Positions 1,184 through 50,558 are shown, counted from the first letter of the stretch. The stretch: 64,000 nucleotides of DNA from a virus (IMGVR_UViG_3300033741_000108:38531-102530); one strand, 5' to 3'. Made by a program: numbers and translations. The notes: generated by a model not told the origin, from the letters alone.

Positions 1184-4100
1184 GTGAAGATAATAAAGAG
1201 AGATGGTAGTACTGTTGATTTTGACAGTAGTAAGATAGTAGAAGCGATTAAAGGGGCATGTTCAGAAACAGAATATAAAAATGATATAAACAAGATTAAT
1301 AAGATAGTTGATGAAATAGTTAAGGAAAATAAGTTCCATCATAATTTACAAGGTAGGTGGCTAAGTGTGGAAAATGTTCAAGACTTAGTCGAGTCATGGT
1401 TAATGGTTTATGGGATGTATGCAGAAGCCAAGAGGTATATTTTGTACAGAAGTGAGCAGTCTCAAAAAAGACACAAAGAATGGGATATGACAGATTTACA
1501 AAGAGATGTGTTGCACAGAAAATATATACATGATGGTGAAAATTTTAATGGTTTTATTAAAAGAGTTGGTAATAATGAACCAAAATTAATGAAGGCTATT
1601 AGAGATAGAAAATTTTTATTTGCTGGTAGAGTTTTAGATGGCAGGGGAAGTAAAGAACCAAAAACATATTCAAATTGTTTTGTATTACCAAGTCCAAAAG
1701 ATAATTTAGAGGATATATTTGATGTGGGTAAGCGAATGGCTATAACATACTCCCTCGGAGGTGGATGTGGTGTAAATTTAGAAAATCTTAGACCAAATGG
1801 TTCAGACACACATAATTCAGCTGAGAAGTCAACTGGTAGCGTTAGTTTTGGAAGTCTATATAGTTTTATTACTGGTTTAATTAGCCAAAAGGGGCGAAGA
1901 GGTGCTTTAATGTTAAGTTTACCTATTAGTCATCCAGATATAAAAGAATTTATAACAATAAAATCTGATTTAGATAAATTAACTAAGGCGAATATATCAG
2001 TTATGATTACAGATGATTTTATGGAAGCTGTAAGAGAATCTAATGATTTTACAACTTCATTTAAAGTCGAACATGATAATGGAGAGACAGAATTAATAGA
2101 GAAAACATATAATGCAAAACAATTGTTCAATACACTTGCAAAACAAAACCATGATTTTGCAGAACCAGGTGTTTTATATTGGGATAGAATAAATAACTGG
2201 TATTTGTTGAGTGAAGATACAGAATATAATTATGATTCAACGAATCCTTGTTTTACTGGTGATATGAAATTATTAACATCAGATGGGTACAAGACGTTCA
2301 AGGAATTGTCTGGTAACAATGTTGAGTTAATTAATAATGATGGTGAAAAAAGTAATGGCAGTGTTTGGAGTAATGGAATAAAGAATACCGTAGAAGTTAA
2401 ATTTTATGGTGATAAAGACCCAATCAAATGTACTGATGACCATGTGTTTATGACAAATGATGGGAAATCTTGTGAAGCGATAGAGTTGCAGGGCAAAAGA
2501 ATAATGCCATTTGTAAAAGTAAATAATGAAATTAATGAATATGTTAAATATGGATTTTTACAGGGTGATGGATGCTTAGGAAGACTAGATTCTGACGCAC
2601 ACAAAGGGCTTGAAATTAATCTTTCAAGTGATGATGGTGATGTTAGAGATTTGTTTGGTATAAAAAAACATGGTAGAACTGTGTATATAAATGGATATAA
2701 TGATATATTAAGTGAGCTTGGATTTTCTTCAAACAAATTGCCGACTAGAGACTTACCGCATACAATAAGGTTATGGGATGACAAAGATAAAAGAATGTTT
2801 TTAAAGGGTCTCTATTCTGCCAATGGATCTGTTATAAAGGGGTATAGAGTTGCCTTGAAGACAACTAATAAATATTTAGCCAAAGATGTAGTTGAATTGC
2901 TCTCTGGGTTTAATATTGAGGCATATATTACTACAAATAAATCACGCAAACAAAAATTTAGTAATGGAGTATATACAATGAAAGAGTCTTATGATGTTAA
3001 TATCTCAAGATATAATTCAATATACAAGTTTAGCGAACTTATTGGGTTCATACATTCATATAAGAATGAATCATTGTCTGATTTAATCATAGGAAAATCA
3101 CCTGTGGTATCATCTATTAAAGAAATAGGTGAAGAAGAGGTATTTGATTTTAATGAGCCGATTAATAATTGGGGTATAGTGGAAGGTGTAATTGCACATA
3201 ACTGTGCGGAAAAGCCTCTCCCAGCCAATTCAAATTGTCTCTTAGCCTCAATAAATTTATCAGCTCTAGTTGGTAATAAATTTGAGGACAATGCTAAGTT
3301 TAATTTTGATGAGTTTAGTGAGTTAGTAAAACTTGGCGTTATTCAATTAAATAAAGTATTAGACGAAGGCATAGATAGATTACCTTTTGAAGAAAATAAA
3401 CAATTTGGTAGAGATTATAGACCAATTGGTTTAGGCTATTTTGGCTATGGTGACATGTTAATTAAATTAGGTATGAAGTATGGATCAAAGGAAGCTTTAG
3501 AATTTACACATAAAGTTGGAGATAAAATGATTAAAGTAGCATTAGAAACTTCTGCTTTATTAGCGAAAGAACATGGTGCATTCCCTAAATTTAAATTAAA
3601 AGAAGTTTTAGAATCGCCATTCTTTAAAGAACACACTAATGATAAAATAACAAAGCTAGTTAAAGAACATGGGTTATATAATGCTGAGTTATTATCAATA
3701 GCACCAACTGGTAGTTTATCGCTATTAGCTGGGACATCCAGTGGAATTGAACCTATATATAAGATATCATATACTAGAAAAACTGAAAGTATATCAGAAG
3801 ATGGTGATGCTTATTATAAAGTGTTTACACCAATAGCTAGAGAGTATATGGATAAAACTGGTATAACTAATGAAGATGACTTACCAGATTATTTTGTTAC
3901 TTCTGGTGACCTAACAGCATTACAAAGAATCAAAACGCAGTCAGTATGGCAACACTATATTGATGCTAGTATATCATCGACTGTTAATTTGCATGAATCA
4001 GCTACAGTTGAAGATGTAAAAGATATATACATGTTAGCTTGGGAATATGGGTTAAAGGGTGTTACAGTATTCAGAGATGGCTGTAAGAGAGCTGGTATTC

Positions 4101-4300
4101 TTGGTAATCATGATAAAGATAAAAAAGACAAATCAGTTAAAGATATGTCAGTAGATGATTTACAATTAGAATTATCTATGAAATTAGAGAAAGAGTACAT
4201 TGATAATCCAGATGAATGTCCTAAGTGTGGTGGAGAGTTAAAACACGAAAATGGATGTGAACAATGTGTTGTATGTGGATGGAGTCCATGTTCAATATAA
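1184..4300 (+). CDS. nrdJ: class II (adenosylcobalamin-dependent) ribonucleotide reductase with N-terminal ATP cone, intein and C-terminal Zn-ribbon
   Basis: IIKRDGS ATP cone; SNCF, GGGCG, GRRGALM, AEPG, NPC/CAE, RPIGLG, IAPTG, SSGIEP, SISSTVN, LKGVTVFRDG; C-terminal CPKCG...CVVCGWSPC; no adjacent nrdB. Confidence 0.93.
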   Translation: MKIIKRDGSTVDFDSSKIVEAIKGACSETEYKNDINKINKIVDEIVKENKFHHNLQGRWLSVENVQDLVESWLMVYGMYAEAKRYILYRSEQSQKRHKEWDMTDLQRDVLHRKYIHDGENFNGFIKRVGNNEPKLMKAIRDRKFLFAGRVLDGRGSKEPKTYSNCFVLPSPKDNLEDIFDVGKRMAITYSLGGGCGVNLENLRPNGSDTHNSAEKSTGSVSFGSLYSFITGLISQKGRRGALMLSLPISHPDIKEFITIKSDLDKLTKANISVMITDDFMEAVRESNDFTTSFKVEHDNGETELIEKTYNAKQLFNTLAKQNHDFAEPGVLYWDRINNWYLLSEDTEYNYDSTNPCFTGDMKLLTSDGYKTFKELSGNNVELINNDGEKSNGSVWSNGIKNTVEVKFYGDKDPIKCTDDHVFMTNDGKSCEAIELQGKRIMPFVKVNNEINEYVKYGFLQGDGCLGRLDSDAHKGLEINLSSDDGDVRDLFGIKKHGRTVYINGYNDILSELGFSSNKLPTRDLPHTIRLWDDKDKRMFLKGLYSANGSVIKGYRVALKTTNKYLAKDVVELLSGFNIEAYITTNKSRKQKFSNGVYTMKESYDVNISRYNSIYKFSELIGFIHSYKNESLSDLIIGKSPVVSSIKEIGEEEVFDFNEPINNWGIVEGVIAHNCAEKPLPANSNCLLASINLSALVGNKFEDNAKFNFDEFSELVKLGVIQLNKVLDEGIDRLPFEENKQFGRDYRPIGLGYFGYGDMLIKLGMKYGSKEALEFTHKVGDKMIKVALETSALLAKEHGAFPKFKLKEVLESPFFKEHTNDKITKLVKEHGLYNAELLSIAPTGSLSLLAGTSSGIEPIYKISYTRKTESISEDGDAYYKVFTPIAREYMDKTGITNEDDLPDYFVTSGDLTALQRIKTQSVWQHYIDASISSTVNLHESATVEDVKDIYMLAWEYGLKGVTVFRDGCKRAGILGNHDKDKKDKSVKDMSVDDLQLELSMKLEKEYIDNPDECPKCGGELKHENGCEQCVVCGWSPCSI
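2249..3202 (+). mobile_element. intein (318 aa) with LAGLIDADG endonuclease in nrdJ
   Basis: Starts CFTGD after NP, ends AHN before C; block B CTDDHVF; motifs YGFLQGDG and FLKGLYSANG. Confidence 0.93.
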
Positions 4301-7156: not shown

Positions 7157-7360
7157 ATGAATTTAATTTTTACAATAACATGTCCACATTGCTATAATCC
7201 TACAAGTATATCATCGATACTATTTATGGATAATAAGAATAAAATTATCGATGTCGAAACACTACAATATACATTACCAGATACATATGTGTGTAATAGT
7301 TGTGGTGAAGACTTTAATGTTGATATTGAAGTTAATGTAGAGGAGGATAATAATGAATGA
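7157..7360 (+). CDS. small Zn-ribbon protein
   Basis: CPHC...CNSC. Confidence 0.7.
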   Translation: MNLIFTITCPHCYNPTSISSILFMDNKNKIIDVETLQYTLPDTYVCNSCGEDFNVDIEVNVEEDNNE

Positions 7361-7967: not shown

Positions 7968-8147
7968 ATGAACTGCAAAACATGCAAAAACAAAGGCACT
8001 ATGGATTATGCAGACTTAGTATGTGCTCCTGCATTTGCTAGTTGTTGTTTAATACTAGATTGGTGTTTAAAATACAAGCAAGAGATAGGCTATATAAATC
8101 AGTTTAAAGATGACTTTAGCGATTGTTATATACCTAAGGAGGATTAA
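7968..8147 (+). CDS. small Cys-rich hypothetical protein (start moved to ATG 7968)
   Basis: RBS ggaggag; CKTC. Confidence 0.6.
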   Translation: MNCKTCKNKGTMDYADLVCAPAFASCCLILDWCLKYKQEIGYINQFKDDFSDCYIPKED

Positions 8148-8148
8148 A

Positions 8149-8373
8149 ATGAATAAAAAACAAAAACAACAAATATATAATTTCTGTAGTAAACATGCAG
8201 ACTTGATAAATGCAAGAATAATAGCAAGAGTATCATTTGCAGAATCAACTAGAACGAACGCAACATATTATGAGGAGTATTACCATCTATTCCTAAGCTA
8301 TTATTTCATATTCACATTAAAAAAAGATGGCGATTACAATGATAGTATTATAGAGGTATATATTGGGAGATGA
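8149..8373 (+). CDS. hypothetical protein (start moved to ATG 8149)
   Basis: RBS aggagg. Confidence 0.65.
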   Translation: MNKKQKQQIYNFCSKHADLINARIIARVSFAESTRTNATYYEEYYHLFLSYYFIFTLKKDGDYNDSIIEVYIGR

Positions 8374-9367: not shown

Positions 9368-9682
9368 ATGAATGAAAACAAAGTAGTAAATTATAAAGTT
9401 GAAAATGCGGGTTTATGGTTTAATGCAGATGCTAGACAAATTAATTTAAGATTACAATTTTCAAATGTAGTTGTTAGTATAAAATTAGATTCAAATCAAC
9501 ACGAAAACCTCAATAAATTATTTGAATTATCAGAGGTATTTGGTATTTATGATTGTAATGGAACATTTGTAAAAGAAATCACAGGCAAATTTTGTAGGTT
9601 AGAAATCGAAAATGATATGCCTATTAAAATTATGCACATTGTAGACAATTCAATTGAAATTGAAATTAACAAGGATAGGTGA
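9368..9682 (+). CDS. hypothetical protein
   Basis: RBS gaggag. Confidence 0.7.
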   Translation: MNENKVVNYKVENAGLWFNADARQINLRLQFSNVVVSIKLDSNQHENLNKLFELSEVFGIYDCNGTFVKEITGKFCRLEIENDMPIKIMHIVDNSIEIEINKDR

Positions 9683-30043: not shown

Positions 30044-31321
30044 ATGACTAAGATTACTGATGCAAAGCTAAAAAAGTTAAAAACTAACTATACTTATAGC
30101 AATATAAGGGAAGTTTGTGATGATATGCTAATTGATTATGATGAATTTAAACATGGAGGTAAGAGAAAAAAGTTACAAAGTAGATTAGAAGAGAATTTTG
30201 ATATAACTAAGATAAGTAGAAACAAATTAATGTTACAAATAAAGACTAGCCATAGAATTGATTTAGCTAAAAAGAAAAATAGTATTAAAGATGACTTCAA
30301 ATATAATAGCAACATATCTAAAATATTTCAAGCCTTACTTACTAATTATTTAATAAATCAAAAAGAGAAAACTGGTGAAAGAGTTCATTATTTAAGTATG
30401 GGTGAAATTGTAGATAAAATTGGTGTGGTTGGCAATAACCATAGTAAATATAATAAAGATAGAGATATTGATAAGATGAAAGATAAGGCAGCTAGCAAAT
30501 ATGATTTAGAGAATGTCATTTACACTCTGAATAAGTGGGATGAGAAACATTTCAAGGCTTATTATAAGCGACATTATAAAAATGGTTATAGCCTTTATAA
30601 GCGAGCTCTTGATAATTTAGAGAAGATTGGAGTCCTGCAATATTATAAAGGACATAGAATATCTTTTAATATTATTAAGGATGGTTTTATTAAAGATAGT
30701 AATCAGCATGTATTTGCACATAAGGAATTAAGAGATGCTGTATTCAATGGTCAGTGGCGTGCTTGGTTATATATGAAGGATAGATTTGATCTAAGGGCTA
30801 ATCCTAGCAAGAGTGATTTTAATGCAAATACTAGTGAGTTGTTTAGTAGATATAACAATAACTTTTTTAATTTAATTGAGTATTATGAAGATATAAAGAG
30901 TGAGCTGAAATTTAGTGATGATGATAAATTATTGAGATATGAGTATAGAACAATGAATGTGTTTAAGAGTAATGGTAATGATATGAGTTTTTATGATTTA
31001 TTTAAAAAATATAGTTGTTGGTTTATTGCTAGAGAGATGGAGAAGTATCGTTATAGTGGATATGATATTGAGGTTAAATATTATTATAATGCTTATGAGA
31101 TAGTTACTAAGGATTTAGCTATTGAGGAATATAGCAAAAATGTTATAAGTGAAATGGTAGAGAAATATGATGCTAAAAATGAACAGTATGGTTATATTAA
31201 GAAAGGATTTAAAGATAAGGATGATTTAGAGTTGTTAAAAGAATTGGCTTTCTTTATGATCCATGATGAAAGACCAGAGAATAGTGTTAAATTTAATGAA
31301 ATTGAGGGGTATAATGAATAA
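30044..31321 (+). CDS. hypothetical protein, putative DNA-binding; N-terminal domain shared with 31314 and 46563
   Basis: TYSNIREVC..I....GG.RK. Confidence 0.8.
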   Translation: MTKITDAKLKKLKTNYTYSNIREVCDDMLIDYDEFKHGGKRKKLQSRLEENFDITKISRNKLMLQIKTSHRIDLAKKKNSIKDDFKYNSNISKIFQALLTNYLINQKEKTGERVHYLSMGEIVDKIGVVGNNHSKYNKDRDIDKMKDKAASKYDLENVIYTLNKWDEKHFKAYYKRHYKNGYSLYKRALDNLEKIGVLQYYKGHRISFNIIKDGFIKDSNQHVFAHKELRDAVFNGQWRAWLYMKDRFDLRANPSKSDFNANTSELFSRYNNNFFNLIEYYEDIKSELKFSDDDKLLRYEYRTMNVFKSNGNDMSFYDLFKKYSCWFIAREMEKYRYSGYDIEVKYYYNAYEIVTKDLAIEEYSKNVISEMVEKYDAKNEQYGYIKKGFKDKDDLELLKELAFFMIHDERPENSVKFNEIEGYNE

Positions 31322-32429
31322 ATATATTATTGAACATGGTAATAAAACTTTAGATTTAAATAATATTGTTTTTAATAAAACATATAGAGATTTTAGAAGT
31401 ATTTGTAATATTTTTGGTTTACCATATAGTAAGTATAAAAAGGGTAGCTCCCGTTACATGTTGTTAAAAAAAATAAATCTACATTTAAACTATAATAAGG
31501 GTACTAATATATCATATGATTATACCTTTATTAGTTTTAAAAATAATAACCCACGTTTGGTGCAAGATGTTATATATAGTTTTAATAAATTGCTATATGG
31601 CAAAGAGGTTCTAGAATATGTATTAAAATATAGATATCCATTTAAAGAATTTGGATTTATAGATTTTATAGATTCTGAATATGTTTCACCAGATAGTTAT
31701 CTATCAATACAATATTATAAAGATAAAGCTGGTTGTAATAAGCTAAAAGATAGACTTTATTCTACAATAAATCGTGCAAATGAATATTTTGTTGAAAATG
31801 AAGTTGATAAAGAAATTATAAGATATGTAATTGAAAATATAAATATGAGTGTGAAGACACAATATGTGATAGTTGGATTAGAAGGTGTTGAGCATAAAAA
31901 GGTTGATACAAATAACTTACCTCAAAATATAATGATTGACTCTGATATTTATTCAATTAAAGATTATATTATGAGTAAGGATTATTCAATAAATAAATTC
32001 AAGAATAAAAACTCAAAATATGTTGATAAAAATATGTTAAAAGACAACTATGACAAGCACAAGAGTAAAAAAATGCATAATGATAGCAGTAATAATTCAA
32101 ATATCGTAAAAGACGCAATTAATTTACTATATAAGTACTGTAAGCACATACAATATAACTATCCACAAAATTATTATGTTTATAAATATACAAACAAGTT
32201 ATCTGGACTGGTGTATATAGGCATTACTAATAATTTATATATTAGACAAAAATCAAGAATAAATAATCCAGAAACACCATTCGATTATACACTTAGGGCT
32301 ATTGGATTGCATAACTTTGATTTTAGTGTGATTGATTATGCTAACACAAGTGAAAGAGTATTAGAATTAGAAAGGCATTATATAGACAAATATGACTCAT
32401 TAAAATGTGGGTATAATATGACTAGTTGA
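31314..32429 (+). CDS. protein with C-terminal GIY-YIG nuclease domain (start moved to 31314)
   Basis: YVYKYTNK..GLVYIGIT..R..ELERHYI..GYN. Confidence 0.8.
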   Translation: MNKYIIEHGNKTLDLNNIVFNKTYRDFRSICNIFGLPYSKYKKGSSRYMLLKKINLHLNYNKGTNISYDYTFISFKNNNPRLVQDVIYSFNKLLYGKEVLEYVLKYRYPFKEFGFIDFIDSEYVSPDSYLSIQYYKDKAGCNKLKDRLYSTINRANEYFVENEVDKEIIRYVIENINMSVKTQYVIVGLEGVEHKKVDTNNLPQNIMIDSDIYSIKDYIMSKDYSINKFKNKNSKYVDKNMLKDNYDKHKSKKMHNDSSNNSNIVKDAINLLYKYCKHIQYNYPQNYYVYKYTNKLSGLVYIGITNNLYIRQKSRINNPETPFDYTLRAIGLHNFDFSVIDYANTSERVLELERHYIDKYDSLKCGYNMTS

Positions 32430-42991: not shown

Positions 42992-43394
42992 ATGAAACTT
43001 ATTGATTTTGTAAATAACGAAATGCAAGACTTCTCAAACTTTAGTGAAGATAGATTGTTTTGATCTTTTCGATTCAAGAATATTAAATGCTGTTCATGGT
43101 GACTTTAATAATTCAAAAGAATTATCTGAATATGTGATGAAAGATGGTGATAAAATATCACTTGCTCAATGTATAATAGAATATAAAGAAAGTAACACAT
43201 TACATATTGATTTTTTAAATTCAAATGTAAAAGATATATCTGGCTTATCAGAAAGAATAATTAATAATATACAGTCTGAGTTAGGTGATGTATTTAAGAT
43301 CGATGATTTAAAAAGTAATAGAAAGAATATTTCTGGGCTTGGTAAAAAGACAATGAATAATATAATTGAATATGCAGAAAGTAAAAAAGAGTAG
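42992..43394 (+). CDS. putative HhH DNA-binding protein interrupted by a +1 frameshift at TTT-TGA (43058-43063)
   Basis: Promoter and RBS aggaggtg at ATG 42992; 23 codons then TGA; +1 frame open to 43394; C-terminal ISGLGKKT...II. Confidence 0.6.
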
Positions 43395-46999: not shown

Positions 47000-47028
47000 T
47001 TGACATTAGAGTTATTGTATGATATAAT
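47000..47028 (+). promoter_or_regulatory. consensus SigA promoter
   Basis: TTGACA-17-TATAAT with TG. Confidence 0.8.
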
Positions 47029-47185
47029 ATAATTAATAGATGATATTGTTAATATAATGTATTGGAGATGATATTTATTGGTGACGAACACTATACAGAA
47101 GGAAATAGTTATCACAGAGTAATTAATAGTTTTGTGTATTTCAATGAGAGTATTAAAAAGGTAGATACCTAAAAGGAGGTGTATT

Positions 47186-47410
47186 ATGAAAAACTTTAAA
47201 TTAGCAGAGAATGATATTGATGATATTTTAGATAAATTAGATGATGGTATTACAAATGAACTAGAAAGACTAGATCACGTTATGTTATTATTAGATGCAC
47301 ATGATGATTTAGTTGATGCCTATGTGTCTGGTGAAATGATTGGTTGGGAAACTGACGATGATATCGAGGATCTTTTTAACAAGCTAGATAAATATATTGG
47401 AGCTGAATAA
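47186..47410 (+). CDS. small highly acidic protein
   Basis: RBS aggaggtg; D/E-rich. Confidence 0.75.
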   Translation: MKNFKLAENDIDDILDKLDDGITNELERLDHVMLLLDAHDDLVDAYVSGEMIGWETDDDIEDLFNKLDKYIGAE

Positions 47411-47425
47411 GAGGAGATGGTTTAA

Positions 47426-48830
47426 ATTAATGTAAAAGTTAATTTTATAGGAGAGAGTCATGAGGTTGTTAGTGGTAGCATGACTTTAGTTGAATATGGT
47501 GATAAGAGAATGCTTATAGAAGCTGGGATGACTCAATCAAATGATATGAAGACAAACTATATAAAGAATAAGCGAATGGTTGAAGAATCTAAGCCAAGCA
47601 CATTGGACTTTGTTTTTTTGATGCATTCGCATGCCTGATCATATTGGTTTAGTACCAGCACTTATTGCAAATGGGTTTGATGGTAAAATATATATACCAA
47701 GACACTCCAAACAAATAATGAGAGATATGTTGTATGATGGAGCTTATCTAGCAGGTAGGACTGCTTACTGCTTATCTACAAATAAAAAAGAATATGATGC
47801 ATTATATACTAATCATGATGTGAATATGGCATTAAATATGGTTGTTGAGTTAGATGATGTTAGAACTAATATAGATGATAATATATCTATTGAGTTATTT
47901 GATAGTGGTCATATATTATTAGCTAAACAAGCGTTATTTTATTTTAAAGATAATATGAATGAAAAGAAATTGTTATATACATCTGACTTAGGTGATAAGT
48001 CTATAAAAAATAGCTTTGCAAATAAATTGCAGCATATTAACCATGCAGATATTGTAATTTCAGAGAGTACTTACGCAGATATAGATAGAAAAGATATTGA
48101 AAGAGATAGAAAAAAAGATTTATCCAAACTTAGGAATATAATTAAACATAATAAAAAGGTAATAATACCAGCATTTTCATTAAGTCGTTCACAAAATATA
48201 TTAATTGATTTATATGATATGTATAAGGATGACACTAATTTTAATAAAAGAGTTATAGTTGATAGTCCACTTACTCAGAAAGTGTTTAATAATTATCTAA
48301 AAATATTAGAGGATACAAAACAATTTGATAAATATAATAAGTTATCTAGTGCAATAGAGTGGTATAATGTTAAATTTACTAGGAATGTGAAGGAGTCTAA
48401 ATCATTAATAGCTAAAGATATGCCACAGGTTATTATAACAAGTAGTGGTATGTTACAAGGTGGTAGAAGTGTATTCTGGACAAAGAGTATTATTAACAGA
48501 AATGATTGTGCAATAGTACTCTCTGGATATCAAGGTGTAGACACATTAGGATATAAAATAAAAAATTGGGATAGAATGAAAATAGATATAGATGATGAGA
48601 TATATGATTTTAAAGTTGAAGTAGATAGCTTGGATAGTTATTCTTCACATATACAGTATAATAGTTTATTAAAATATCTATCAAATATAAATAGTAACGA
48701 AGTATATTTACATCATGGTGATCATAATAATAAAGTAGAATTTTCAAAAGTATTAAAGCAGGAATATGAGAATAAATTTAAGACTACAAAAGTAATACCA
48801 ACTAGAAAAGATATGATAGTAGAATTTTAG
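47426..48830 (+). CDS. MBL-fold beta-CASP nuclease split by a +1 frameshift inside HxHxDH
   Basis: Frame A from ATT 47426: NVKVNFIG..VSGS..LIEAG..DFVFLMHSHA-TGA; frame B: DHIG, SGHIL, YTSDLG, SESTY, IPAFSLSRSQ, SSGMLQGG, YSSH, HHGD. Confidence 0.85.
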
Positions 48831-48854: not shown

Positions 48855-48883
48855 TTGACAACTGTATAATAGTGTGATATAAT
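48855..48883 (+). promoter_or_regulatory. consensus SigA promoter for the tRNA/ncRNA cluster
   Basis: TTGACA-17-TATAAT with TG. Confidence 0.8.
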
Positions 48884-49336: not shown

Positions 49337-49411
49337 CTAGATGTGGGAGAGTGGTTATCCGCAAGCTTTGGGAGCTTGTCTACGCAAATTCAAATTTTGC
49401 CATCTAGACCA
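49337..49411 (+). tRNA. tRNA-Pro(UGG)
   Basis: acceptor ctagatg/catctag; anticodon arm caagc-tttggga-gcttg; CCA. Confidence 0.88.
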
Positions 49412-49465
49412 ATAGAGCTTGGGATGCCTATCGAAGAAGCAGACTAGCCCAAGCCATTTATATAA

Positions 49466-49542
49466 TGCGGGGTGGCGTGTTGGGTCGCCAATGAGGTTCA
49501 TATCCTTATCTACGCTGATTCGATTTCAGCCCACCGCATCCA
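49466..49542 (+). tRNA. tRNA-Met(CAU), initiator-like acceptor stem
   Basis: tgcgggg acceptor; tgagg-ttcatat-cctta; TTCGATT; CCA. Confidence 0.85.
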
Positions 49543-49661
49543 ATAAACATGTGAATAAAGGTTTATATTAGCAATACCACAAACCAAAAACCTTGAGCCT
49601 TAAATTGGCGACAGACCATTAGGTAATTCTATAGGAGCGTTGTTAGGTGGTATAAAAATAA

Positions 49662-49739
49662 GCGAGAATAGCTCAATTAGGCTAGAGCCTCTGGTTTCCA
49701 ACCAGAATGTTGTGAGTTCGATTCTCACTTCTCGTTCCA
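49662..49739 (+). tRNA. tRNA-Gly(UCC)
   Basis: tctgg-tttccaa-ccaga; TTCGATT; U73; CCA. Confidence 0.92.
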
Positions 49740-49744
49740 AATAT

Positions 49745-49827
49745 GGAAGTCTAAACTTAAATCACTAGGGAAGTGAATTGGTCTCCAAAACCAATGTTAA
49801 TGCGTTCAACTCGTAAGATTTCTGCCA
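49745..49827 (+). tRNA. tRNA-Trp(CCA), atypical long D-arm
   Basis: ttggt-ctccaaa-accaa; acceptor ggaagtc/gatttct; GCCA. Confidence 0.75.
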
Positions 49828-49865
49828 ATATTATGAATAAGGTTAAAAAATAATAATTCTAATAA

Positions 49866-49941
49866 TGGAGCATAGTTCAGTTGGTAGAACAATCGGCTGT
49901 TAACCGATAGGTCAAGAGTTTAAATCTCTTTGCTCCAGCCA
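49866..49941 (+). tRNA. tRNA-Asn(GUU)
   Basis: atcgg-ctgttaa-ccgat; tggagca/tgctcca; GCCA; T-loop tttaaat. Confidence 0.88.
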
Positions 49942-50063: not shown

Positions 50064-50558
50064 ATGAAAGAAATATGGAAAGATATTGAGGGTTTTGAAG
50101 GAGAATATCAAATTAGTAATTTAGCAAGAGTAAAAAGCTTTAAAGGGAAAAGAGCTATAATATTAAAGCAATCAACTCAATCTAGAGGATATAAACAAGT
50201 AAGTTTACCTAGTAAATGTACTTTAGTACATGTATTAGTAGCAAGAGCATTTATTAATAAGCCAGAATATAAAGTAGAAGTTAATCATATTAATGGTGAT
50301 AAGTCTTGCAATGAAGTATCAAATTTAGAATGGGTTACACATAAAGAGAATATGGAGCACGCATTAAATACAGGACTTCTACCTACATTAAAAGGCGAGA
50401 ATACTAGTAACCATAAATTAACAAGGAAAGAAGTTATAGATATAAAAGCTTTATTAAAAGAAGGTATCTTAAATCAAATAGAAATATCGGAGAGATATAA
50501 TGTTTCCAGACCAACAATTAGTAAAATAAATGTTGGTAGAGCATGGAGTCATATTTAA
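50064..50558 (+). CDS. NUMOD4-HNH homing endonuclease with C-terminal HTH
   Basis: EIWKDIEGFEGEYQISNLARVKS; VHVLVA.AF..EVNHINGDK..N...NLEW. Confidence 0.92.
   Translation: MKEIWKDIEGFEGEYQISNLARVKSFKGKRAIILKQSTQSRGYKQVSLPSKCTLVHVLVARAFINKPEYKVEVNHINGDKSCNEVSNLEWVTHKENMEHALNTGLLPTLKGENTSNHKLTRKEVIDIKALLKEGILNQIEISERYNVSRPTISKINVGRAWSHI

Follow-up and report, generated by a model that had tools for sequence, protein, structure and literature searches.

A phage beta-CASP nuclease gene broken within its metal-binding motif and possibly rejoined by +1 ribosomal frameshifting

A 64,000-nucleotide (nt) stretch of virus DNA, IMGVR_UViG_3300033741_000108:38531-102530 (the window, meaning the whole stretch that was analyzed), forms the 3'-terminal 64 kb of an IMG/VR phage contig of 102.5 kb (G+C content, 28%) and carries at positions 47426-48830 a gene for a beta-CASP nuclease of the metallo-beta-lactamase (MBL) fold whose catalytic HxHxDH motif is divided between two reading frames. 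An in-frame stop stands exactly where the conserved protein carries on in the +1 frame (GCC_TGA_T, 47633-47639). The base responsible is genuine and is shared with a diverged strain, and both halves of the gene are under strong purifying selection, each in its own frame. Among the ways in which such a break could be decoded, we lean toward a low-efficiency, unstimulated +1 ribosomal frameshift at GCC_UGA_U, a reading drawn from the sequence in which the shift would supply the only complete form of the enzyme.

Gene layout and encoded enzyme

The upstream frame, frame A, finishes CAT-TCG-CAT-GCC-TGA (47624-47638), and from 47637 the +1 frame reads GAT-CAT-ATT-GGT and stays open to the TAG at 48828-48830. 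Skipping T47636, with TGAT taken as one step, gives a joined protein of 467 amino acids (aa; P0121), and the join must fall between CAT 47630 and GAT 47637. A first-pass annotation of the stretch had described a frame that opens at ATT 47426 behind a gaggag ribosome-binding site, encodes an MBL N terminus, and ends in these codons; our reading matches it in every detail. Its observation that a single-base skip rebuilds H-S-H-A-D-H also holds, with GAT-CAT running from 47637 and the motif complete only after the +1 shift, and so does its statement that some 400 downstream codons retain the remaining motifs, the 397 codons in question holding MBL motifs 3 and 4, beta-CASP motifs A to C, and RMMBL. 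Neither open reading frame (ORF) by itself holds the full metal site, in line with the earlier statement that neither half can work alone. At the upstream end, an ATG-GTT-TAA lies in frame before ATT 47426, so that no ATG, GTG, or TTG is available to start the conserved N terminus. Annotation pipelines misdescribe the gene as a 52-aa ORF followed by a 399-aa "MBL family protein."

In domain searches, the N-terminal piece alone scores 15.4 bits with Lactamase_B, below the Pfam threshold, and the C-terminal piece alone matches Beta-Casp and RMMBL, whereas in the joined protein PF00753 (Lactamase_B) rises to 34.6 bits with a match that crosses the junction, and PF10996 (75.5 bits) and PF07521 (31.1 bits) exceed their gathering scores. 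In an alignment of 70 family sequences, D71 and H72, which come from the +1 frame, occupy invariant columns, and H67 and H69, from frame A, occupy columns with conservation of 90% or more; both pairs reach these columns only through the +1 join, and the alignment of homologs runs over the junction without gap or insertion. HxHxDH is thus contiguous in one chain only in the inferred trans-frame product. The remaining catalytic positions, E32 (an E/D column), H162, D187, E213, H408, and H430, likewise sit in columns that are invariant or conserved to 90% or more. With MBL motifs 1 to 4 and beta-CASP motifs A (D/E), B (H), and C (H) as defined previously (PMC3553952), motif A corresponds to E213, motif B to H408, and motif C to H430, and MBL motifs 2 to 4 are also matched; MBL motif 1 is Glu rather than Asp, as in most phage relatives.

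Structural comparison points the same way. An alignment-based AlphaFold2 model has a pLDDT of 94.5 and a pTM of 0.92 and is confident over the junction as well; a single-sequence AlphaFold2 model (pLDDT 36) was discarded in its favor. Foldseek places CPSF73, archaeal aCPSF, TTHA0252, IntS11, and type VII Cas14 at TM scores of about 0.8 to 0.9, with an E value of 1e-35 to CPSF73 and aCPSF, and a phmmer search against the Protein Data Bank reaches 7e-31. The phage family is phrog_36352 (6.8e-93), which has no annotated function. By its motifs and modeled fold, the joined 467-aa product is a complete CPSF73/TTHA0252-type beta-CASP nuclease. By analogy it is more likely an RNase than a DNase, because its structural neighbors CPSF73, aCPSF, TTHA0252, IntS11, and Cas14 are all beta-CASP enzymes that cleave RNA.

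Authenticity and age of the break

The extra base is found in independent assemblies. Public runs containing this DNA come from three brine metagenomes, in which all sampled words were present, and from one saline-spring metagenome, in which 23% were. Between 47300 and 48900, a Logan contig assembled from one of the brine runs shows no difference, and a 356-nt Logan contig from the saline-spring run covers 47378-47733 with 20 substitutions and no gap; the comparison of public runs reported no indel variant at the shift site. A 2.7-kb JGI contig, L007, carries the same pair of 52-aa and 399-aa ORFs with an 8-nt overlap, and its protein P0001, also 399 aa and 97% identical, was the one close relative in the protein search. 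The window and L007 agree at all 37 bases surrounding the site, against roughly 5% difference over the whole gene, and the shift site GCC_TGA_T is the same in both. The saline-spring run and L007 may represent one sample, but they were assembled independently.

An assembly error, which the first-pass annotation had listed as an alternative, is excluded, because a strain about 5% diverged and independently assembled carries the same T. That the T is a sequencing or assembly artefact of any kind, absent from the phage DNA, has virtually no chance of being correct: although the genome derives from a metagenome assembly and a scan of JGI metagenome contigs yielded no further copy, the site is not a homopolymer, and the base stands in the IMG/VR contig, the brine and saline-spring Logan contigs, and the JGI contig. 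That scan, made for the site with or without the inserted base, gave 0 hits and carries little weight, as near relatives are possibly not in the collection.

Since their divergence, the two strains have kept both halves of the gene. The N-terminal half differs from L007 by 15 synonymous changes and 1 nonsynonymous change (synonymous divergence [dS], 0.53; ratio of nonsynonymous to synonymous rates [dN/dS], 0.011), and the C-terminal half differs by 54.5 and 13.5 (dS, 0.30; dN/dS, 0.047), whereas reading the same differences in the wrong frame gives a dN/dS above 2. Over the first codons, from the putative ATT start onward (47426-47479), there are 3 synonymous and 0 nonsynonymous differences, and over 1.4 kb, at a dS of 0.3 to 0.5, no further indel or stop has appeared. 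These figures leave a decaying pseudogene, killed by a frameshift mutation and now drifting, hardly credible. In its favor, the more distant homologs are all continuous, so the break is a derived mutation, and a second broken gene of the phage is under weaker constraint (dN/dS, 0.30). Yet the two break-carrying lineages have accumulated 69.5 synonymous against 14.5 nonsynonymous changes since their split, the two ratios show no relaxation of selection, the 1.4 kb holds no extra disabling mutation, and every invariant catalytic residue has been kept.

As the break is present in both strains, it arose, by this comparison, before they split; with the more distant homologs all continuous, it is lineage specific but old. 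The alternative of a recent 1-nt insertion, also raised in the first-pass annotation, is not borne out: the insertion predates a split at a dS of 0.3 to 0.5, and both halves have been constrained since. A short imported patch spanning the break is a residual possibility that we cannot fully exclude, the identical tract of about 36 nt having a P of about 0.06 at the local divergence; such a patch would still need the broken form to be favored in both strains. The upstream orf74 is nearly identical in the window and L007 (dS, 0.077), and 16 nt farther on, the beta-CASP N-terminal half has a dS of 0.53, while sequence to the left of about 47160 is unrelated. This mosaic divergence across 47100-47460 implies recombination boundaries flanking orf74.

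Distribution of the break is narrow. The first-pass annotation asked whether homologs break at the same codon: L007 does so identically, and all inspected homologs beyond the lineage of the window and L007 are continuous through the motif, which reads GHVHQDHIG in L001, LHAHQDH in L002, THAHIDH in L003, and GHLHCDHIG in L008. After P0001, the next-best protein is only 41% identical. Searches for closer relatives found no match by megablast of the locus against GenBank phages and no close relative by a back-translated peptide scan of IMG/VR. An IMG/VR pattern scan with HxHx-T-GAYCAY..GG.T..T.CC gave 4 hits, all due to chance and outside MBL genes, and a search for other short N-terminal fragments among 5.8 billion proteins found only the cluster of the window's own 52-aa ORF.

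Decoding of the break

Several routes past the stop were rejected. Transcriptional slippage at the run of seven Ts ahead of the site fails, as every length change leads to a stop or to loss of HSH, and treating TGA as a sense codon fails, as readthrough in frame A does not restore the motif. An alternative code was likewise dismissed, TGA ending 22 of 160 ORFs and Trp in the beta-CASP gene being encoded by TGG. With slippage and sense TGA ruled out, the route left would be a +1 shift by ribosomes that have GCC in the P site and UGA in the A site.

The sequence of events that we favor is as follows. An ancestor of the lineage would have gained a single T before the Asp codon of HxHxDH, creating GCC_UGA_U. 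Translation would begin at the weak ATT behind a strong Shine-Dalgarno (SD) sequence, and most ribosomes would stop at the in-frame UGA and release a useless 70-aa fragment. A minority would shift by +1, with peptidyl-tRNA-Ala on the rare GCC, take GAU (Asp), and complete the enzyme, the predicted trans-frame peptide across the junction being ...MHSHADHIGLVPALIANGFDGK. The outcome would be a low, fixed dose of full-length nuclease, and that low dose is presumably what selection keeps.

Features of the site agree in part with this frameshift. GCC accounts for 49 of the 1,091 Ala codons in the phage (4.5%). If it is read by a GGC anticodon, which is assumed and may not be that of the host, 2 of 3 pairs would hold on CCU after the shift, the same number as in antizyme. 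Known shifty stops include CCC_UGA in Listeria phage tail-shaft genes (CCC being a 5% codon) and UCC_UGA_U in antizyme (PMC5009743); GCG_UGA_C of yeast OAZ1 is 37% shifty intrinsically (PMC5009743), and CCC_TGA, of the same shifty-stop layout, gives more than 1% shifting in Escherichia coli (PMC5009743, PMC10861913). A second gene of the phage, described below, is broken in a like manner. The chance that a random 1-nt insertion in the genes of this genome makes a stop in the codon struck is 5.8%, and both breaks place a stop there; 2 of 2 stop-making insertions would be unexpected for unselected indels.

Other observations weigh against a frameshift. Squaring the 5.8% involves ascertainment bias, since a break followed by a long out-of-frame tail could have escaped notice. 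The 20 nt 5' of the site contain no SD-like run, and 3' folds at both shift sites are no better than shuffles (z-scores of -0.2 to +1.1), although stimulators are not obligatory, stop-type sites of Listeria phage tsh lacking them (PMC5009743). Ordinary TGA stops of the phage are most often followed by T (13 of 22), so that UGA-U is no obviously weak terminator, tRNA-Ala is unable to re-pair fully on CCU, and an ATG overlaps the stop in a phage with several other gene pairs whose start and stop overlap in the absence of an SD. The break is known from two lineages only, with identical sites that allow no comparative test, and no RNA run is listed among the public runs containing this DNA; the trans-frame product is predicted from sequence. 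The first-pass annotation had suggested programmed, regulatory recoding, and this part of its proposal finds no support, no SD-like or RNA structure stimulator having been found and the stop context being the usual one; we expect a low-efficiency "compensatory" frameshift rather than a sensor. No observation connects the break with release factor 2 (RF2) status or with the tRNA cluster, and the toxicity that the annotation supposed is an assumption.

An enzyme of two chains, made by a restart that the first-pass annotation did not consider, is the alternative that we take most seriously, while considering it unlikely. Ribosomes would stop at TGA 47636 and restart 5 nt upstream at ATG 47631 (ATGCCTGA), and a 399-aa chain starting M-P-D-H would assemble noncovalently with the 70-aa fragment into an active MBL/beta-CASP fold. 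The start codon does overlap the stop, the same kind of start-stop overlap, lacking an SD, occurs in at least 5 other same-strand gene pairs of the genome, purifying selection on both halves is equally well explained, and restart would probably yield more than an unstimulated frameshift. Yet the ATG is nearly automatic, since CAT followed by any GCN makes one and CAT represents 71% of His codons, and the second chain would have no SD. The metal-binding loop itself would be cut, so that the active site would gain a free carboxylate and an additional Met-Pro; among 5.8 billion proteins, no second family member with a split at this point or a start at DH was found. The rare GCC, which restart does not require, is left unexplained. 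Decoding of four bases, with UGAU translated as Asp by a host or phage tRNA whose anticodon loop is enlarged, or a shift at NNN_UGA_UC driven by a phage factor, is very improbable. Both breaks in the genome have TGA-TC in common and resume at GAT, and a tRNA cluster lies 500 nt downstream; against this, the phage has just four tRNAs, all ordinary and with an anticodon loop of 7 nt, no further credible tRNA emerged around the gene or in the rest of the genome when ARAGORN and Rfam were run with relaxed settings, and with two sites only the common TC could be chance.

A second frame break

The second broken gene (Table 1) would join a 23-codon ORF to the +1 frame and encode a 133-aa product with a weak HhH-like tail. 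In L011, a relative that shares its JGI sample with L007, the gene is uninterrupted (133 aa; P0123, 89% identical) and lacks the extra T, reading TTG-TTT-GAG where the window has TTG-TTT-T-GAT. Because the gene is intact in L011, the second break is, on this comparison, specific to the brine lineage. Both breaks consist of one T set before a GAx codon, and at UUU_UGA full re-pairing is possible. With the weaker constraint on this gene (the dN/dS of 0.30 given above), the break may be tolerated through frameshifting, or the gene may simply be decaying.

A broader idea is that efficient +1 shifting at UGA in this system makes a T before GAY or GAR (NNN_UGA_N) a tolerated, recurrent, and reversible gene throttle whose output tracks host RF2 activity. 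We find this quite doubtful; were there such a throttle, itself an improbable premise, the beta-CASP break would be old and fixed and that of the HhH-like gene recent. Such indels may perhaps be "savior" changes, which lower the dose of a harmful nuclease or destroy a homing-endonuclease target in conserved motif DNA.

Weak starts across the family

The unusual start of the gene has parallels. The window and L007 have an SD, 9 nt, and ATT; L001, L019, L020, and L008 have a conserved GAAAGGYGGT, 7 to 8 nt, and then an invariant ATC; and L012 and L014 have an SD followed by ATA-AAA. About one-third of the top 60 homologs are called 25 to 60 residues short through starts other than ATG, GTG, or TTG, callers giving 412 to 441 aa, while other family homologs have normal ATG starts. 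Entry into the gene by -1 slippage from a small ORF ahead of it (A_AAA_AAG in L008) was considered and dropped, as this arrangement is not conserved in L001, L019, and L020, and the conserved ATC start is preferred. Recurrent AUU, AUC, and AUA initiation suggests, from these sequences, selection for low expression of these enzymes. The first-pass annotation had spoken of rationing of the nuclease; weak starts fit that view, but the fit is no proof of it.

Two of these relatives have further peculiarities. In L014 (1369-1386) and L012 (1294-1314), the beta-CASP frame follows a ClpP-like gene in the same frame, with one TAA between them, and the L014 gene matches its database protein only if TGA is Trp; that phage appears to use code 4.

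Locus and genome features

Features of the locus are collected in Table 1. The four phage tRNAs are ordinary and under their own promoter, and the cluster is a neighbor without a demonstrated recoding role. Within it, tRNA-Met(CAT) (49469-49538, + strand) is an ARAGORN call of 70 nt with a short D arm, unmatched by the Rfam tRNA model at E values up to 1, and may be an atypical or degenerate phage tRNA. A weak "tRNA-Trp(CCA)" candidate at 49752-49823 was mismatched and rejected, as was a reverse-strand artefact.

Table 1. Positions of features at the beta-CASP locus, at the second break, and at weak-start sites of relatives (window coordinates unless a contig is named)
Feature	Position	Strand	Remark
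23-codon ORF with promoter and strong SD AGGAGGTG, ending TTG-TTT-TGA-T	42992-43394	+	+1 frame to 43394, 133 aa
Second candidate shift site, TTT_TGA_T	43058-43064	+	One extra T
Consensus sigma-70-type promoter, TTGACA-17-TATAAT with TG	47000-47028	+	12/12 match; serves two-gene unit of orf74 and beta-CASP gene
orf74, 74-aa ORF, first in unit	47186-47410	+	No Pfam match
SD, GAGGAG, 9 nt ahead of ATT 47426	47411-47416	+	Same in L007
In-frame ATG-GTT-TAA adjoining SD	47417-47425	+	Shuts frame ahead of conserved N terminus
Inferred noncanonical initiation codon, ATT	47426-47428	+	Sole start-like codon before conserved strand beta-1 and VxGS motif; ATC or ATA in family relatives here
Frame A part, 70 codons, MBL N terminus	47426-47635	+	Last residues H67-S-H69-A70
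T7 run	47613-47619	+	
ATG in +1 frame, ATGCCTGA overlap with stop	47631-47633	+	Possible restart codon for 399-aa chain; without SD
Candidate shift site, GCC_TGA_T	47633-47639	+	P-site Ala codon (rare), A-site stop, +1 codon GAT (Asp71)
+1-frame part, 397 codons (D71-H72 ... F467) and TAG 48828-48830	47637-48830	+	MBL motifs 3 and 4, Beta-Casp domain, RMMBL
Promoter of tRNA cluster (consensus)	48855-48883	+	
tRNA cluster, Pro-TGG, Met-CAT, Gly-TCC, Asn-GTT	49337-49941	+	
Weak-start site, window	47417-47428		
Weak-start site, L001	1254-1275		
Weak-start site, L008	2784-2799		
Weak-start site, L012	1299-1314		
Weak-start site, L014	1371-1386		
Weak-start sites, L019/L020			

Mobile elements are present elsewhere in the window. 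At 1184-4300 (+ strand), a ribonucleotide reductase large subunit (ATP-cone and barrel) is split by an intein with a LAGLIDADG endonuclease domain; a free-standing homing-endonuclease-like gene with NUMOD4 and HNH_3 lies directly after the tRNA cluster (50064-50558, + strand); and a homing-endonuclease-like protein with a C-terminal GIY-YIG domain is encoded at 31263-32429 (+ strand).

Upstream of the window, at C1:11360-13242 of the genome, two long same-strand ORFs have a 55-nt overlap, the second without an SD, and in the -1 frame 40 codons precede the first stop; this could be a possible -1 frameshift or a miscalled start in the structural region. In 4 of 21 ordinary TGA-terminated ORFs (window 7157-7360, 8110-8373, and 9368-9682, + strand; C1:12382-13242, upstream of the window), a second in-frame stop comes directly after the first (TGA-TAA or TGA-TAG), perhaps as a backup for leaky UGA termination. 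Brine and saline-spring origin, a G+C content of 28%, strong SDs, and sigma-70-type promoters suggest that the host is a halophilic low-GC bacterium.

Relation to known systems

If the frameshift is real, it would provide a bacterial-type +1 site from nature that works with an Ala codon in the P site and without a stimulator, within the catalytic motif of an enzyme. Few obligatory +1 recoding events are known in phages, and this would be one more. The pattern of a T before GAY giving a shifty UGA may be a general signature to scan for. Should the two-chain enzyme prove correct instead, it would represent a natural MBL-fold enzyme split in its metal-binding loop, useful for protein fragment complementation. 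The recurrent AUU, AUC, and AUA starts, for their part, suggest that the putative phage RNases of this family have been strongly selected to be expressed at a very low level.

With CPSF73, aCPSF1, TTHA0252, IntS11, and Cas14, the joined phage product has in common MBL motifs 1 to 4, beta-CASP motifs A to C, and RMMBL, at an identity of only about 20 to 24%. As to decoding, close counterparts are the CCC_UGA sites of tsh in Listeria phages PSA, A118, and A500, which, as here, involve a low-GC host, a rare xCC codon (~5%), and UGA in the A site (PMC5009743), with no SD stimulator at the stop-type site. In Listeria, a structural protein is optionally lengthened at its C terminus by the shift, and both forms are used, whereas the shift proposed here would be obligatory for any active enzyme and would occur 70 codons in, inside the catalytic motif, with a tRNA-Ala that re-pairs less well than the tRNA-Pro of Listeria. 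The Listeria cases rest on protein evidence; the phage beta-CASP case is predicted from sequence.

The heptamer of mammalian antizyme, UCC_UGA_U, is one base off GCC_UGA_U (G for U), and the product there continues from Ser, and here would continue from Ala, to Asp (GAU). The antizyme shift is obligatory for a functional product, as ours would be, and in yeast an Ala codon before UGA is highly shifty. Antizyme is, however, eukaryotic and polyamine sensing, with 5' and 3' stimulators, including a pseudoknot, and none of these stimulators was found at the phage site. In prfB, which encodes RF2, CUU_UGA_C is likewise an obligatory +1 site at an early in-frame UGA, with an efficiency expected to drop as RF2 rises, and its full re-pairing geometry matches that of the second phage site, UUU_UGA_U. 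Yet prfB needs an internal SD 3 nt upstream and a weak UGA-C, whereas the beta-CASP site has no SD and has UGA-U, and the feedback logic of prfB does not apply where the product is a nuclease and not RF2.

Corrective or compensatory frameshifting, as at the G run of herpesvirus thymidine kinase (PMC5009743), offers a similar logic, a DNA indel being offset by low-level shifting and the unshifted product being useless, as would be the case here. Known compensatory cases are mostly mitochondrial or drug selected, whereas in this phage enzyme gene the indel has persisted while the strains diverged substantially and purifying selection acted on both halves. If its break is indeed read by +1 shifting, as we think most likely, the phage gene would represent a new site, in a new gene family and at an unusual position, within the known class of +1 "shifty stop" and compensatory frameshifts.

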